Assembly (NCBI GenBank): GCA_012628545.1
Contig: GCA_012628545.1_3035.1
Source of the DNA: a phage
Direction: 5' to 3' (one strand)
DNA length: 64,000 bases
The translations under genes were made by a program, and so were the position numbers. This document shows, in pieces, positions 71-45,091 of this stretch (within the stretch, counting starts at the first letter, position 1; each line of letters begins with the position of its first letter). The notes beneath the pieces are model-generated. The model made no database searches. It was not told the origin of the DNA and worked only from the letters and a program-made list of their open reading frames with translations.

Positions 71-439
71 TTATGCAACTTTAATCCAATTATCTAAATT
101 TAATTCACCTTTGGCTTTCATTTTTTCAATCAAGAGGTCAGCGGTAATACGACCATTTTGATACCACGTAACATCTTCAGAGTAACCAGTTTCTTTATCT
201 TCATAAGTCTCGCAGCGAATTTTACCAAGAATCAAAGTTTTTAATTCGTATGTATCTCCAGTAAAAAAGTTAGTTAACATTATTTTCCAAGAGAAATCAT
301 CAGAAGGACCTTCAGGAGTCATACAATCTACGAATTCAAATTGTTCTTTGTATAAGTGCCACTGAAGTTCTTTAGTTTCGATAGCTTTATAGCCGTCGTG
401 ATCTTTACCTTTGATGTATGAGTTAAGATTGATTTTCAT
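71..439 (-). CDS. hypothetical protein
   Basis: 122-aa ORF in early-gene orientation; no recognisable motif. Confidence 0.5.
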   Translation of the reverse strand: MKINLNSYIKGKDHDGYKAIETKELQWHLYKEQFEFVDCMTPEGPSDDFSWKIMLTNFFTGDTYELKTLILGKIRCETYEDKETGYSEDVTWYQNGRITADLLIEKMKAKGELNLDNWIKVA

Positions 440-463
440 TTTATTCTCCTTTGTTTGTGTAAG

Positions 464-496
464 ATAATACTATCACAAAGGAACCATACTGTAAAC
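464..496 (-). promoter_or_regulatory. early promoter
   Basis: GTTTAC (rc of 491..496) and TATTAT-like -10 upstream of ORF 71..439. Confidence 0.4.
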
Positions 497-515
497 AACT
501 TTGTGCAATCTTTGG

Positions 516-544
516 AAAATAAAAAAGGACTCCCGAAGGAGTCC
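516..544 (-). terminator. rho-independent terminator
   Basis: Hairpin ggactcc-cgaa-ggagtcc (UUCG loop on minus strand) followed by U-run. Confidence 0.5.
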
Positions 545-549
545 TCAAC

Positions 550-726
550 TTATGCTTTCTGCTTACCAAAACGAGAAGCATCATCTCGAAGAACCGCACG
601 TGCTCGGCGCATGATCTTCTCAACAGTTTGATTGATACGAGAGTTCGACCCACGCTTGTAACCAGCGCGTTTAGAATCACCAACTTTCTTTTCAACTGCT
701 TTCTTTGCTTTAGCTTGTTTTGCCAT
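550..726 (-). CDS. small Lys/Arg-rich basic protein (58 aa)
   Basis: ORF track 550..768 trimmed to internal ATG (MAKQAKAKK...) preceded by GAGA Shine-Dalgarno; followed by terminator hairpin. Confidence 0.4.
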   Translation of the reverse strand: MAKQAKAKKAVEKKVGDSKRAGYKRGSNSRINQTVEKIMRRARAVLRDDASRFGKQKA

Positions 727-1241: not shown

Positions 1242-1577
1242 TCACTTATAAAGACACGGAATAGCTTTATAGTGACAAGTAACGAATTTTTGTTTAATTT
1301 CTTTTGGCTGCTTAAGACCCAGAGCTACAAAAGGATGCGGAACATTTCGAATTTGACCAACTGGAAGAGAAGTCAAATCACCAACTTCGCAAAAACCTTT
1401 AGGAACATCAGGACCGACAGAGTGAACTACACACAGTTCAGGAACTTCACCTTGAACACGTTTACCGATGATAAGTCCTGATTCTGTAACTTCTTCATCA
1501 CCGGCTTGTGCAGGTTCAGAAACTAAAATAACATATTCACCGACAGCACGAATTGGTAGCTGTTGTACTTCAGACAT
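1242..1577 (-). CDS. 31: co-chaperonin for GroEL (GroES analogue)
   Basis: 111-aa ORF beginning [15 protein letters not shown], matches T4 gp31 by length and sequence recall. Confidence 0.85.
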
Positions 1578-5517: not shown

Positions 5518-5807
5518 TTATCCTCTTTTAACTCTTGACGATAATAACATATCATAGTTTTTTGGTCATGTACATATCGTTTTACATCATTAAGCCAAAT
5601 ACGAAATTCCTGAGAATCTTCAAATGGCATACCGACCCAAGCTTTACCATCAATAACTTTAACTTGCCAAGATAGTTTAGCTTCGTCATATGACTTTATT
5701 TGCACAGGCCAATTAGGATGAACTGTTTCTTTCTTTACTTCTAGAGGCTTTGTAGAACAACCAACTAGAAGACCAATAGATAATATTACTGCTGATAGTT
5801 TAATCAT
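5508..5807 (-). CDS. putative lipoprotein
   Basis: 99-aa ORF with signal peptide and lipobox-like LLVGCS. Confidence 0.5.
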   Translation of the reverse strand: MIKLSAVILSIGLLVGCSTKPLEVKKETVHPNWPVQIKSYDEAKLSWQVKVIDGKAWVGMPFEDSQEFRIWLNDVKRYVHDQKTMICYYRQELKEDKCK

Positions 5808-6157
5808 TTAGAAAGGTCCTGGATGTCTTCTGCGAACTTGTTGAAGGAATTGTTGATTTGTTTTTCAACCAATCCTGGCTTACGAGCCACCACATCCGCC
5901 TTCTTTGCGTCTTTGCGCAGCTTTTCATTTTCACGCTCAATAGCAGCAATTGCCTCACGATTTTTAGTATTCATCGCATCAATATAATTATACTGAATTC
6001 GCAAATTATTTAATGCTAAAGCGTTTTCATTGGCTGTTTTTGTAATTTCAGTAACTGATGTTTCTAATCTTTCTACCTTATTTTTTAAAATAATAGATGT
6101 TCCGCCCAATGCTATTACAATTAATAGCAAACCTGCTGTCGTATTACTTAATTGCAT
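5804..6157 (-). CDS. hypothetical membrane-anchored coiled-coil protein
   Basis: 117-aa ORF, N-terminal hydrophobic helix. Confidence 0.5.
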   Translation of the reverse strand: MQLSNTTAGLLLIVIALGGTSIILKNKVERLETSVTEITKTANENALALNNLRIQYNYIDAMNTKNREAIAAIERENEKLRKDAKKADVVARKPGLVEKQINNSFNKFAEDIQDLSK

Positions 6158-40105: not shown

Positions 40106-40378
40106 TTAATTCATATTACGTTTAATAACTTCAGCAACTTCTAGTAGTTCATCTTTAGTTGCGGTGTCGGATTGAATTTTATCTCTAATATCTTTAAAGC
40201 GGTTTTTAAATTCTTCGGCTTCTCCCATATCGAAAAAGCGTTGAATGATTCTATATTCTCGATGAACTGCTTTATCAAAAAGTTCTAAATTTACTCTATA
40301 TGATTTCATTTCAATATCCTCATTTGCCCAATTAATTATACCACATCCTTGTGTAAAGTAAACTACTGGCTCATCCAT
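40106..40378 (-). CDS. hypothetical protein
   Basis: 90-aa ORF. Confidence 0.5.
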
Positions 40379-42183
40379 TCTTTACGAAGGTCAGCATTAT
40401 CTCCCATGAGCATTTCAAAAAGCTCTTTCCAATTCTCAGGAAGTTTAACAACATCATATACTGGATTTTGAATCATCTCACGATATTCAGATTTTTCCAA
40501 AGAGCCAAGTCCCTTAATATAACGGATGCTATGTTTAGGTAGAGCATCTTTGGCACTCTCATATTCAGCGACTGTATAAAACCATTCTTGTTTTTTACCG
40601 ACCTGAGCGATGATTACAGGAGTTTTGACAAAGCGAATTCGTCCTTGCTCAAACAATTCTGGCCAATTACTAAAAAATCCGAGCAGAGAAGGATAAATGC
40701 TTCCTAGACCATCATGGTCAGCATCAGTCATAATAGCAATATTGCGATAATTCAAGTTTTCAGCTTTTTCACCAAGAACTAGACCAGTGATTGCGCAAAT
40801 ATCAAATAGTTCTTTGTTTTTAAGCATATCGGCATATGACATACCCCAGCTATTAAGAACTTTACCGCGCAATGGATAACCACCATGAAGTTCTTTATCG
40901 CGAACATCAATAAGATATCCGATAGCTGAATCACCCTCAGTCAAGAACAATGTAGTGTCAGCATCTTTACCGCAAAGATTCGCTTTAATATGTTTATGAA
41001 CCTTAGCTTTAGAAGCCTTTTTAGCTGCTTTAGTTTCTGCTGCTTTTTCTGCCGCCAATTTACGAGCCAAAGCAGCTTCAATAATCGGCATCAGAATTGC
41101 TTCATTATTTAGAATAGCGCGTGAAATCTTTTTAGCGTCAAGTTGAATATGACTACGAATTTCGCCAAATGGAGAAGTCAAACGCTCTTTAGTTTGAGAA
41201 TCAAATCGCATGTTTTTCATATCACGAACAAACATAACGATAGTCAAACATTCTTTGACACGTGCTTTAGTTACATCAATTTTGAACTTACGTTTGATTT
41301 GTGGAATAAGGTCTTCACAAATATCATCCATAACACAGTCAATGTGATGGCCACCATTCTTAGTGTGAATGTTATTCACGTAAGTTAATTGACGAAATCC
41401 ATCCGGCGAACGACCAACCGCAATAGAACAATTTTCTTGTTCTTGAACAATAGCATGTTCATCATACTGTCGTGCATATTTCTTAAAATTACCCTGAACC
41501 TTTTTACCATTAAAGGTAAATTGAATATCAGGATAAACAACAGCAAGTGTCTGGAGACGATCTAGTGTAATGTCAAGATAAACTTGGGACAGCTCATTAG
41601 TTTCAAATGACATAAAATCAGGAATGAAAGTAACACGGGTTCCTTTCCATTTTCCAGGAATATCTTCCCATGATTTATTTTCCATGCCGTTTGAACAACG
41701 AACTACAATATTATTTTGACCATCGCCAGTTTCACCAACAAACATCACAGAAAAAATGTTTGTCAAACTAGAACCAACGCCATTCATACCACCGGTGACA
41801 CGTTCTTTATCATCACCGAAGTTACCACCTGCTTTTGGAATAGTCCACGCAGCAACAGGACCAGGAATTTCTTCACCGGTAGGTGTTTTAACCATCGCCT
41901 GTGGAATACCACGACCGTTATCTTCAACTGTTACTTGATTATTTTTAATAGTAACATTAATTTTATTTGCGAATTTAAACTTAGTACGAATACCTTCATC
42001 TACTGAGTTATCGATAATTTCATCAATAAGCTTAACAAGACCAGGTACATACTGAACACTTTCCCATTTACCAAACAGAAATCGCTCATGCATTTCATTA
42101 GCTGAAGAGCCAATGTACATGCCGCTACGCTTTTTGATATGTTCAATATCGCTCAGAATTTTAATTTCATTCTTAATCATCAC
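40363..42183 (-). CDS. 39: DNA topoisomerase II large subunit (GyrB-like), gene 39 and gene 60 parts in one ORF
   Basis: 606-aa uninterrupted ORF; GHKL ATPase N-terminus; C-terminus carries the T4 gp60 sequence (NVAIMTDADHDGLGSIYPSLLGFF...). Confidence 0.9.
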   Translation of the reverse strand: MMIKNEIKILSDIEHIKKRSGMYIGSSANEMHERFLFGKWESVQYVPGLVKLIDEIIDNSVDEGIRTKFKFANKINVTIKNNQVTVEDNGRGIPQAMVKTPTGEEIPGPVAAWTIPKAGGNFGDDKERVTGGMNGVGSSLTNIFSVMFVGETGDGQNNIVVRCSNGMENKSWEDIPGKWKGTRVTFIPDFMSFETNELSQVYLDITLDRLQTLAVVYPDIQFTFNGKKVQGNFKKYARQYDEHAIVQEQENCSIAVGRSPDGFRQLTYVNNIHTKNGGHHIDCVMDDICEDLIPQIKRKFKIDVTKARVKECLTIVMFVRDMKNMRFDSQTKERLTSPFGEIRSHIQLDAKKISRAILNNEAILMPIIEAALARKLAAEKAAETKAAKKASKAKVHKHIKANLCGKDADTTLFLTEGDSAIGYLIDVRDKELHGGYPLRGKVLNSWGMSYADMLKNKELFDICAITGLVLGEKAENLNYRNIAIMTDADHDGLGSIYPSLLGFFSNWPELFEQGRIRFVKTPVIIAQVGKKQEWFYTVAEYESAKDALPKHSIRYIKGLGSLEKSEYREMIQNPVYDVVKLPENWKELFEMLMGDNADLRKEWMSQ

Positions 42184-42232: not shown

Positions 42233-42250
42233 AAAGGCCCGAAGGCCTTT
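42233..42250 (-). promoter_or_regulatory. intercistronic UUCG-loop hairpin
   Basis: aaaggcc-cgaa-ggccttt between ORF 42250..42519 and gene 39. Confidence 0.35.
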
Positions 42251-42519
42251 TATTTAAAACGAATAGTTGAATCCTTAAAGAACAGCCCAGAACATACTGT
42301 TCCTTCTACTTTCTGCCCGGTAGGTCCAATAGCACGAAATCCAGTATGTTGGAAATCATTTTCAGAACAACCGAACCAGTTATATCCAGTGATTTCAATA
42401 TTAGTAAAACCGCTTGAAGATAAAACTTTGGTTGCATTATCAGCATCAGTACATCCTACTAAAGACACTGTTAATACTAATGCTGCAATAGAACGATTAA
42501 TATATTTCATAATTTTCAC
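42250..42519 (-). CDS. putative lipoprotein
   Basis: 89-aa ORF with signal peptide and lipobox LVGCT. Confidence 0.5.
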   Translation of the reverse strand: MKIMKYINRSIAALVLTVSLVGCTDADNATKVLSSSGFTNIEITGYNWFGCSENDFQHTGFRAIGPTGQKVEGTVCSGLFFKDSTIRFK

Positions 42520-42887
42520 TTAAATTTAATGGCTTGAAGAAGACTAATAATTCTCAAGCGACTTCTTTCATCTTTAACTGTAAAAGAAAGAGGGTCACCA
42601 GATTTCATAGTAATAGTACATTCAAAATCAAAATCTTCGGAAACTTCTTTGAAGAAGTCAAATTCTTCATCATAAATTAGAACATTACTCTGACAACTAT
42701 GAAGAATTTTTCCATCATTTCCAGATGCTGTACTAATCATTGTAACATTATGACCTTTCATACCTTCAATGATAAATTCACTAGTCAATATTACAGCATT
42801 AATAGAACTATTCCTATTACTAGCAGAAAGTAGATATTTCTGTTCTTCACCTTCACGAATGCAATATTTCTTACCGATTTTAAACAT
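42516..42887 (-). CDS. hypothetical protein
   Basis: 123-aa ORF. Confidence 0.5.
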   Translation of the reverse strand: MFKIGKKYCIREGEEQKYLLSASNRNSSINAVILTSEFIIEGMKGHNVTMISTASGNDGKILHSCQSNVLIYDEEFDFFKEVSEDFDFECTITMKSGDPLSFTVKDERSRLRIISLLQAIKFK

Positions 42888-42889
42888 AA

Positions 42890-43066
42890 TTATCCTTTAA
42901 GTAAGTCGTAAAATCCGCCATTCACATGCTTAGGAGCAGAAGGCCGACGAGTAGACAAACGATGACATTTAGGGCAAACATCATTTTCTCGTTCAGAAAT
43001 CTTTTTAATTTTTTCATATTCATGCCCGCAATCTTCGGATTGGCATTTATAATCATACATTGGCAT
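42890..43066 (-). CDS. small zinc-ribbon protein (58 aa)
   Basis: Hand-translated MPMYDYKCQSEDCGHEYEKIKKISERENDVCPKCH...; two CxxC-type pairs; below ORF-track cutoff. Confidence 0.4.
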   Translation of the reverse strand: MPMYDYKCQSEDCGHEYEKIKKISERENDVCPKCHRLSTRRPSAPKHVNGGFYDLLKG

Positions 43067-43068
43067 AA

Positions 43069-43494
43069 TTATTCCTTAAAGTGTGCTTTCAGCATTTGAT
43101 ACAAGGACCATGCCTGTTCATTATTTTCAATAGTAACTTTCATGACAGGAAATTCTGTGAAATCTTCTATTTGTTCTTGCTCTTTCTCTTCCTGCTCTTG
43201 CTCTTCAGCTGCCTGATATGGATTTTCCACTTCATCAAAGAACCCAGCTTCGTTAGTAGAAAGCCAAATAAAGTTTTCGTCAAGGATATCACCATGTGTT
43301 GCATATCCAACTGTGCCAGTAGATGTCACAATTTTAGTAGGACGACCAAGATGGTCAACATCTAAAATTTTAAAAGGATGCATACCTAAACGGCGTGCAT
43401 AGATTCCGTTATCAGTATGATCTTTAATAAAATTTTCTTGAGCTTGTTTATTTTTAAATTGATACCATTTATTAACTTCAAATCTAATAGCCAT
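43069..43494 (-). CDS. goF: hypothetical acidic protein, possibly GoF
   Basis: 141-aa ORF with Glu/Gln-rich tract; assignment from length and synteny only. Confidence 0.4.
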
Positions 43495-43709
43495 TAATAA
43501 ATTTCCTTCCAGTAAGTTGTGCCATCTTCAGTAATTTCACGAAATACACCGTAAATTGGTTGTTTATCACCAACCTTTTCATACACATAAACCGAAGTCA
43601 AGTGAGTAAACTTAACGGTATGTTCCTTTTGAACCACTACCAAATCTGGATCAAATAATACATCTTCAAATTCGTCATTAGTGCAATTCTGAACAATTTT
43701 GCGTTTCAT
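43494..43709 (-). CDS. cef: hypothetical protein, possibly Cef
   Basis: 71-aa ORF; assignment from length and synteny only. Confidence 0.4.
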
Positions 43710-44088: not shown

Positions 44089-44580
44089 TTATGCATAGCG
44101 AGCTTTGCTGTAGTGTTTAATCCAACTTTCAGGAATGACTTTGTATGTTCCTAAAAATACCGCGTTGTACAGCTTAACACCGTCTTCTACCCATTGATCA
44201 GTAATGTATGCACACATAGCGCGAGTACGGTTAACAACACCTTCCTCACCTTCAGTAAATTCAAACTCATAAGGAGCAACGAACTTGATAGCTTGACCGA
44301 GTTTCCACTTAAAGTCTACACCTACATGCGAAGTATCAATCGTTTCAATTCCTTTAGCGGGAACAGCTTTCAAAAACGCAGGCTCAAGAAATTTCCATCG
44401 AACATAACCAAACTGAGGTTTAGACATTCCATCTTTAGGAATGATACGCACTTTTACTTCAGAATCTTCATCTTTAACACCATGTTTAAGCTGAATGCTT
44501 ACGACTTCAACCAATTTTCCTGCTGCCTTAGAACGGGATTTATCAGATACACGAGCAATTTCACCGATATTAATATTCAT
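44089..44580 (-). CDS. motB: putative MotB
   Basis: 163-aa ORF; assignment from length and synteny only. Confidence 0.5.
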   Translation of the reverse strand: MNINIGEIARVSDKSRSKAAGKLVEVVSIQLKHGVKDEDSEVKVRIIPKDGMSKPQFGYVRWKFLEPAFLKAVPAKGIETIDTSHVGVDFKWKLGQAIKFVAPYEFEFTEGEEGVVNRTRAMCAYITDQWVEDGVKLYNAVFLGTYKVIPESWIKHYSKARYA

Positions 44581-44653
44581 AATTATCTCTCACTTGTTAA
44601 AAAGATTTTATACTCCACAGGACCATTATACTCTGGTCCCAAGAGTTTGTAAA

Positions 44654-45091
44654 CTAGCTTACACGAACATTAATCACTGCGCTACGAGGAACTACAGAGT
44701 ATTCTCCAGCATGAACTACGTTCAGAAGTTCAACACCATCTTCAATCCACTGATCAGTCACCCATCCACCCACAGGATTCGCGAATGGACGACGAATATA
44801 AACTGCCTTACACAGCAGATCAGTTGGATCTTCAGGTTTTTCAATTTCTGTCAATAGACTAAAATCTTTTTCATAAATAATAAGCGGTGATACCATTCCA
44901 TAATAGTTTCTAATTTCAATATACATCATACCGATAAGAATTCCGCTATTAACACTAATAACAGTAAAAGGATATCCGCCAGTTAAACCAAGAAGTTCAC
45001 AAAACTTATTATGAGCTGTATTAGACAGTACCGAAAAATTCTTAATTTCATCAAATTTTTTCAATTGATAAACAGCATTATTTTTAATCAT
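44654..45091 (-). CDS. hypothetical protein, C-terminal module paralogous to upstream ORF
   Basis: 145-aa ORF; shares motif TDQW(I/V)EDGV(E/K)L.N.V..G.Y.V(V/I)P with ORF 44089..44580. Confidence 0.5.
   Translation of the reverse strand: MIKNNAVYQLKKFDEIKNFSVLSNTAHNKFCELLGLTGGYPFTVISVNSGILIGMMYIEIRNYYGMVSPLIIYEKDFSLLTEIEKPEDPTDLLCKAVYIRRPFANPVGGWVTDQWIEDGVELLNVVHAGEYSVVPRSAVINVRVS

Follow-up and report, generated by a model that had tools for sequence, protein, structure and literature searches.

A frame of 58 codons lies on the minus strand at 42890..43066 of the window (the whole 64,000-nucleotide stretch of phage DNA that was analysed), and raises the question of whether it is a gene, which gene it is, and on what its product acts. 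The initial annotation had read it as an unannotated zinc-ribbon ORF and had suggested nucleic-acid-binding regulation as its role. Translation of 42890..43066 gives MPMYDYKCQSEDCGHEYEKIKKISERENDVCPKCHRLSTRRPSAPKHVNGGFYDLLKG*, 58 aa from an ATG start to a TAA stop, in exact agreement with the earlier hand translation, and the two cysteine pairs described there are present as C8-x4-C13 and C31-x2-C34. The tight packing between two ORFs was likewise confirmed, as 2 nt separate the stop codon of goF (43069..43494) from the ATG and 2 nt separate the TAA from the start of the ORF at 42516..42887; at 58 aa, the frame had indeed been missed by the 60-aa cutoff. The features of the gene and its junctions are as follows.

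42890..43066, minus strand: coding sequence of 39.2 (nwgI), 58 codons plus TAA, from translation, purifying selection and annotation in related records
43073..43077, minus strand: putative Shine-Dalgarno sequence AAGGA, 6 nt 5′ of the ATG and within the last goF codons, its ribosome-binding role presumed from position and consensus
42893..42898, minus strand: putative Shine-Dalgarno sequence AAAGGA of the next gene, coinciding with the last two 39.2 codons (K57 G58), read from the sequence
43069..43494, minus strand: goF, the upstream neighbour, in one transcription unit with 39.2, named goF in T2, GiZh and T4 and matching PHROG 622 and goF families
42516..42887, minus strand: 123-aa ORF, the downstream neighbour, matching PHROG 622 at 8.9e-29

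The layout TAA-tt-ATG is identical at the goF/39.2 junction and at the junction of 39.2 with the next gene; at the latter we infer translational coupling.

An ORF scan of the region returned dozens of frames of 30-60 aa, and two of these overlap the 58-aa ORF; since so many such frames arise by chance in this AT-rich window, a length of 58 codons is not significant in itself. Selection on the frame was examined with the orthologues of T4 (frame-corrected), one Mosigvirus and one Dhakavirus as the comparison set. Nei-Gojobori pairwise dN/dS was 0.05-0.15 in the frame of the ORF and 1.1-3.2 in the other two frames, and the substitutions relative to these three orthologues were concentrated at third codon positions. 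In tblastn, the frame was present in 886 phage records, with at least 80% of the query covered in 852 of them. As the low dN/dS was restricted to this frame, profile HMM scores exceeded their curated cut-offs (see below), and the tblastn matches were widespread, the 58-aa ORF is a real protein-coding gene under purifying selection in its own frame.

The 1.2 kb of DNA around the gene (window positions 42400-43600) showed 99.3% identity to phage GiZh and 97.8% to T2, and the window is that of a T2/GiZh-like Tequatrovirus. The 58-aa protein matches its T2 and GiZh counterparts at 100% identity, and shows 47/58 identity (81%) to the 58-aa Gp39.2 of resequenced T4 (MT984581) and 91% identity to the Mosigvirus (RB69-type) copy. 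The copy is labelled 39.2 in T2 (NC_054931), AR1 and ime09, and 'similar to RB69 gp39.2' in GiZh; product names in public records include 'gp39.2', 'FmdB-like transcriptional regulator', 'zinc ribbon domain protein' and 'hypothetical protein'. Gene order in the window is goF (43069..43494), 39.2, the 123-aa ORF, 39.1 and 39, all on the same strand. The slot downstream of goF and upstream of 39.1/39 is common to T2, GiZh, T4, LH01 and Bp7, Mosigvirus and Dhakavirus included, and in T2, GiZh and T4 the gene at the corresponding position, downstream of cef and goF, is 39.2. Similarity to Gp39.2/NwgI thus extends over the full length of the protein, and the genomic position is conserved. The 58-aa ORF is T-even gene 39.2 (nwgI), which is already known and annotated in hundreds of phage records. 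The description 'unannotated' therefore holds solely against the ORF list available to the initial annotation, as related public records annotate 39.2. For the window, this identification mainly corrects the record, the ORF not being a new gene, and it illustrates that pipelines with a 60-aa cut-off overlook the functional gene 39.2.

In three T4 records (NC_000866, AF158101 and M89919), 39.2 is annotated as only 45 aa. The out-of-frame continuation of 39.2 in the T4 reference still encodes ...GFYDLLKG, and a 58-aa protein is regained when one T, at nucleotide 132 or 133, is removed. All resequenced T4 genomes (T4T, KJ477684-6, MT984581, OL964735 and others) lack one base of the reference and show 96.9% identity to it over a 261-bp stretch. 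The 58-aa Gp39.2 is encoded in every resequenced isolate; in MT984581 it is accompanied by a longer 39.1 (261 nt versus 198 nt in the reference). The discrepancy is located as follows.

L003 (NC_000866) 5560..5845 versus L109 (MT984581) 330..605: an extra T and several other differences in the former, by which 39.2 is truncated and 39.1 shortened

Judged from these sequence comparisons, the 45-aa T4 39.2 entry is an artefact of sequence error, and the reference error that truncates 39.2 propagates into databases. RefSeq and UniProt still carry the incorrect 45-aa version as an entry of its own.

The genes around 39.2 showed several further features. The 123-aa ORF, which the window has between 39.2 and 39.1, is absent from T4, shorter in T2 (318 nt), and unannotated in the GiZh RefSeq record; although it and goF both belong to PHROG 622, a paralogy comparison detected no pairwise similarity between the two proteins. 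Gene 39.1 (42250..42519, minus strand) begins with a typical lipoprotein signal, MKYINRSIAALVLTVSLVGC, with the lipobox LVGC (LIGC in T4 MT984581), which suggests that its product is a phage-encoded lipoprotein. Topoisomerase gene 39 (40363..42183, minus strand) is a single 606-aa ORF, as in T2, whereas T4 gene 39 is split into 39 and 60, with a 60.1/mobA insertion and a translational-bypass segment. Two tandem motB-like ORFs (44089..44580 and 44654..45091, both minus strand), both annotated as MotB-like regulators in GiZh, have in common the C-terminal motif DQW[VI]EDGV.L.N.V..G.Y.V[IV]P.S, and the pair suggests a local duplication. Of the promoter-like sites 5′ of the cluster that contains 39.2, the following scored best.

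44625..44653, minus strand: promoter-like site TTTACA-17-TATAAT, 11/12 by consensus match, before a motB-like gene

This site is a candidate early promoter for motB-cef-goF-39.2, in a region where promoter-like sites are not enriched (18 found versus 16.5 expected). A search of the minus strand between the candidate and 39.2 found no terminator-like site. An antisense promoter-like site at 43040..43069 (plus strand) was rejected as a chance occurrence on the same count of 18 versus 16.5.

The zinc-ribbon character of the protein was assessed by profile searches, alignment and structure prediction. Gp39.2 matched Pfam Zn_ribbon_8 (PF09723) at 45.7 bits (cut-off 34.4) and NCBIfam TIGR02605 (FmdB-family zinc ribbon, CxxC_CxxC_SSSS) at 44.9 bits (cut-off 31.3), both matches covering residues 1-41, and it also matched PHROG 1076. 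By these profile matches, Gp39.2 is a member of the FmdB zinc-ribbon family. Its parts are located as follows.

42935..43066, minus strand: predicted zinc-ribbon core, residues 1-44 (MP.Y.Y.C ... C.xC ... SA), from Pfam, TIGR02605 and AlphaFold2
43028..43045, minus strand: putative first zinc knuckle, C8-x4-C13 (CQSEDC), C8 invariant and C13 conserved except for a His in Krischvirus
42965..42976, minus strand: putative second zinc knuckle, C31-x2-C34 (CPKC), both Cys invariant in the 12- and 76-sequence alignments
42893..42934, minus strand: C-terminal tail, residues 45-58 (PKHVNGGFYDLLKG), with an AP...GG[FY]Y motif, from alignment and AlphaFold2

Relatives were collected by a word-indexed protein search, which gave 7 close relatives, and with an alignment as the query, which gave 114. 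A 12-sequence alignment was made from Tequatrovirus, Mosigvirus, Dhakavirus, Tegunavirus, Krischvirus, Vequintavirinae and two jumbo phages, in which M1, P2, Y4, Y6, C8, R26, C31 and C34 were invariant. C13 was kept in 11 of the 12 phage sequences and replaced in the Krischvirus copy by His, which can also bind zinc. In a 76-sequence alignment, C8, C31 and C34 were again invariant and G51 was nearly so. The tail motif SAP...(N)GG[FY]Y[DE] was kept in the Tevenvirinae, Krischvirus and Vequintavirinae copies of the 12-sequence alignment. Conservation of the frame and the cysteines in related phages, which had been proposed as a check on the zinc-ribbon call, was thus found across distant phages, with all four ligand positions kept and one Cys replaced by His.

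AlphaFold2, given an alignment of these relatives, predicted a four-stranded ribbon core at residues 1-44 (strands at 3-8, 16-20, 28-30 and 37-40; pLDDT 81-84, about 83), and a tail at residues 45-58 with a short helix at 52-55 and pLDDT of 59-66, which is probably flexible according to the model. Because the ligands are conserved and the fold is predicted to be a ribbon, one Zn ion would be held by C8, C13, C31 and C34. The original zinc-ribbon call is upheld by two profiles above cut-off, the conserved ligands and the modelled ribbon core. A Foldseek search of the model against the PDB gave no significant match (best E-value 0.39); the weak, non-significant neighbours, all with E-values of at least 0.39, were RbpA, RNAP subunit P (RpoP), the MCM N-terminal Zn-ribbon and aRF1. 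On the predicted model, this result reflects a generic zinc-ribbon fold without a functional lead. Separately, C2H2 zinc-finger matches obtained by profile search of PDB sequences were rejected as compositional or motif artefacts arising from the YKCxxCGKxF pattern.

Members of this family were also seen in other genomic settings. In Vequintavirinae and Krischvirus, they adjoin a gene for a pyrophosphatase or an exonuclease. A 78-aa Zn_ribbon_8 protein of an unrelated phage contig (L026 3001..3237) is encoded between the portal and major capsid genes of a head-morphogenesis module. A 94-aa bacterial FmdB member (L018 3001..3285) is flanked by aspS and, on the opposite strand, by a gene for a class-II tRNA synthetase (tRNA-synt_2b and HGTP_anticodon domains), with no chaperonin gene nearby.

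As for function, T4 39.2 has been described as encoding a 58-aa peptide that modulates GroES/GroEL (Ang & Georgopoulos 2012, Genetics 190:989, PMID 22234860, NwgI; via PMC5153855). [quoted passage not shown] Transfer of this function to the window protein is reasonable because of its 81% identity to the T4 protein and 91% identity to the RB69-type copy. In the 2012 study, the gene was reportedly first obtained from RB69 by selection on groEL mutants, the RB43 and RB49 homologues are said to behave alike, and overproduction was reportedly lethal to the host. The best explanation overall, which we hold with good though not full confidence, is that the 39.2 zinc ribbon and tail act on host GroEL and not on nucleic acid.

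In the mechanism that we propose, 39.2 would share a minus-strand transcript with motB, cef and goF, which would probably start at a promoter of the early type. Translation of 39.2 would be coupled to that of goF and would use a Shine-Dalgarno site of its own, located within the last part of goF. The product would be a 6.8-kDa protein consisting of a rigid FmdB-type ribbon core (residues 1-44) and a flexible conserved tail (45-58; AP..GGFYDLLKG), and would shift GroEL toward the open state that binds a co-chaperonin, either host GroES or phage gp31. Such a shift would support GroEL-dependent folding, and the phage would need Gp39.2 on hosts with sub-optimal GroEL. We infer that the window orthologue binds GroEL directly, the conserved tail being the most likely contact surface. 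The tail sequence GGFYDLL faintly resembles the GroES mobile loop AGGIVL (AGGIIL in the jumbo-phage Cpn10), a likeness limited to a short motif, and the idea that the tail mimics the mobile loop is speculation from sequence. The phage co-chaperonin gene was located in the window as follows.

1242..1577, minus strand: gene 31, the phage co-chaperonin replacing GroES, matching PHROG 931 at 4.8e-50 and with 98% identity to GiZh gp31

GiZh gp31 is annotated as a GroEL co-chaperonin. As gene 31 is present in addition to the 39.2 orthologue, both phage factors acting on GroEL are encoded in the window; the two genes are about 41 kb apart, and are non-adjacent in T-even phages.

A chaperonin link was also seen at a distance from the T-even phages. 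In 11/11 GAP32-type jumbo-phage loci examined (L009 2001..2494, L010 2001..2517, L013 3001..3519, L016, L022, L024, L027, L047, L055, L057 and L060), a gene for a Zn_ribbon_8 mini-protein of 66-69 aa lies directly upstream of a Cpn10/GroES gene, with intergenic gaps of -1 to 21 nt. The pair was first seen in fENko-Kae01 and fHe-Yen9-04, with Zn-ribbon proteins of 67-69 aa, and is also present in GAP32 and every related contig sampled; the gene annotated as chaperonin is Cpn10 by Pfam (66.6 bits). The surrounding order is DNA polymerase B ... phosphoesterase, Zn ribbon, Cpn10, and the pair has been kept despite divergence to 49-74% identity for the Zn ribbon and 45-72% for Cpn10. Among about 75 other viral loci, collected by a search of viral contigs with the 12-sequence alignment, none had Cpn10 or gp31 within 3 kb of the Zn-ribbon gene. 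The adjacency is confined to one jumbo-phage lineage and is not general. The phosphoesterase gene 5′ of the Zn-ribbon gene in fENko-Kae01 (L009 413..1990) encodes 525 aa, with a LAGLIDADG_3 domain after the Metallophos N-terminus, and the equivalent proteins in related jumbo phages are about 201-204 aa; the extra domain is probably an intein or a homing-endonuclease insertion.

The Zn-ribbon/Cpn10 adjacency fits a chaperonin-linked role of phage FmdB-type mini-proteins, as a lead and not as proof, and because the jumbo-phage proteins show only 27-36% identity to the window protein, they may not be functional equivalents. We consider it doubtful that FmdB-type zinc-ribbon mini-proteins form a general, unrecognised class of chaperonin modulators; if they did, the proteins of the jumbo phages, and perhaps some very widespread bacterial FmdB proteins as well, would act on GroEL/GroES through the ribbon and a Gly-aromatic tail. 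The jumbo-phage pair is the only mildly new element of this analysis, and offers a testable lead on a chaperonin link beyond the T-even phages.

Two other targets of Gp39.2 were weighed against GroEL. Gp39.2 might be a general small zinc-ribbon adaptor that works mainly on some other target, such as RNA polymerase, the ribosome or a different protein of the host, and its modulation of GroEL would then be a by-product that shows when it is overexpressed or when the host is a mutant. The FmdB family is indeed very broad, its genes having quite different neighbours (beside aspS, between portal and capsid genes, or next to a pyrophosphatase or exonuclease gene), and the reported lethality of overproduction would fit several targets. 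However, GroEL is again the machine to which the conserved pairing with Cpn10 in jumbo phages points, and the T4 deletion phenotype, as summarised in PMC5153855, is specific to certain groEL alleles. We regard a main target other than GroEL as improbable.

Slightly less probable still is the role put forward by the initial annotation, and implied by the database label 'FmdB-like transcriptional regulator', of a nucleic-acid-binding regulator. On this reading, the ribbon would bind DNA or RNA to control phage or host expression, and GroEL would be affected indirectly, for example through altered chaperonin expression. Nucleic acids and RNA polymerase are indeed the targets of many zinc ribbons, and the weak fold neighbours of the model, besides the MCM Zn-ribbon and aRF1, are RbpA and RNAP subunit P, both of them zinc ribbons that bind RNA polymerase. 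The genes goF, cef and motB beside 39.2 have links to transcription and RNA metabolism, and PHROG 1076 is labelled 'transcription regulation'. However, none of the fold matches was significant, the best E-value being 0.39, and Gp39.2 is only weakly basic (pI 8.4, net charge about +1.7). A Pfam search of Gp39.2 found no DNA-binding family above cut-off (Ogr_Delta, 13.8 bits versus 26.3), and a literature search gave no experimental evidence of an FmdB-family protein regulating transcription. The name FmdB derives from the position of the gene beside a formamidase gene. The label 'FmdB-like transcriptional regulator' is an inherited family name that probably misleads, since the one member studied by experiment is a modulator of host GroEL. 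For that orthologue, from T4, genetic and biochemical work is described as pointing to an action on GroEL conformation (PMC5153855), and as its action is on GroEL/GroES in both summaries (PMC5153855, PMC4396842), the proposed regulatory role is not supported.

The reading of the frame as a chance ORF or a decaying remnant without function, for which one might cite its mere 58 codons in an AT-rich genome where chance ORFs of 30-60 aa are common and the T4 reference record with 39.2 truncated to 45 aa, has a negligible probability and is already refuted by strong purifying selection in this frame only, by an intact frame in 852/886 matching records and by HMM scores above curated cut-offs, the 45-aa version being a sequence error in an old record that is absent from all resequenced T4 genomes.

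With modulation of GroEL as the preferred reading, Gp39.2 of the window can be set beside the systems it most resembles. T4 Gp39.2 is likewise 58 aa long, occupies the slot downstream of goF, starts with MP.YDYKC, and has both the SAPKHVNGGFYDLLKG tail and the four ligand positions; the window protein differs from it by 11 substitutions, mostly in the loops between the knuckles. With the FmdB family (PF09723/TIGR02605), Gp39.2 shares the MP.Y.Y.C sequence at the initiator Met, knuckles about 17-18 residues apart, and SAP...G.(F/Y/W)(F/Y) after the knuckles. Unlike that family, it has a C-x4-C first knuckle in place of the canonical C-x2-C, has no low-complexity C-terminal extension, and is phage-encoded, and the one bacterial family member sampled adjoins aspS and not chaperonin genes. 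The jumbo-phage proteins (GAP32_261, fHe-Yen9-04 g260 and fENko-Kae01 ENKO_297) share with Gp39.2 the Pfam family, the MPLY.Y.C start, the small size and a Gly-aromatic-aromatic tail motif (GNWF versus GGFY), but carry an insertion of 8-10 residues before the tail and are linked to a cpn10 gene. The co-chaperonins gp31 (T4), CocO (RB49) and Cpn10/GroES act on the same machine, GroEL, and like Gp39.2 would secure chaperonin-dependent folding during infection. They have no sequence or fold relationship to Gp39.2, which gave no match to Cpn10 (PF00166) in a Pfam search and is modelled as a zinc ribbon and not as a β-barrel with a mobile loop; and whereas the co-chaperonins cap the GroEL ring, Gp39.2, in the summary given in PMC5153855, modulates the conformational equilibrium of GroEL.
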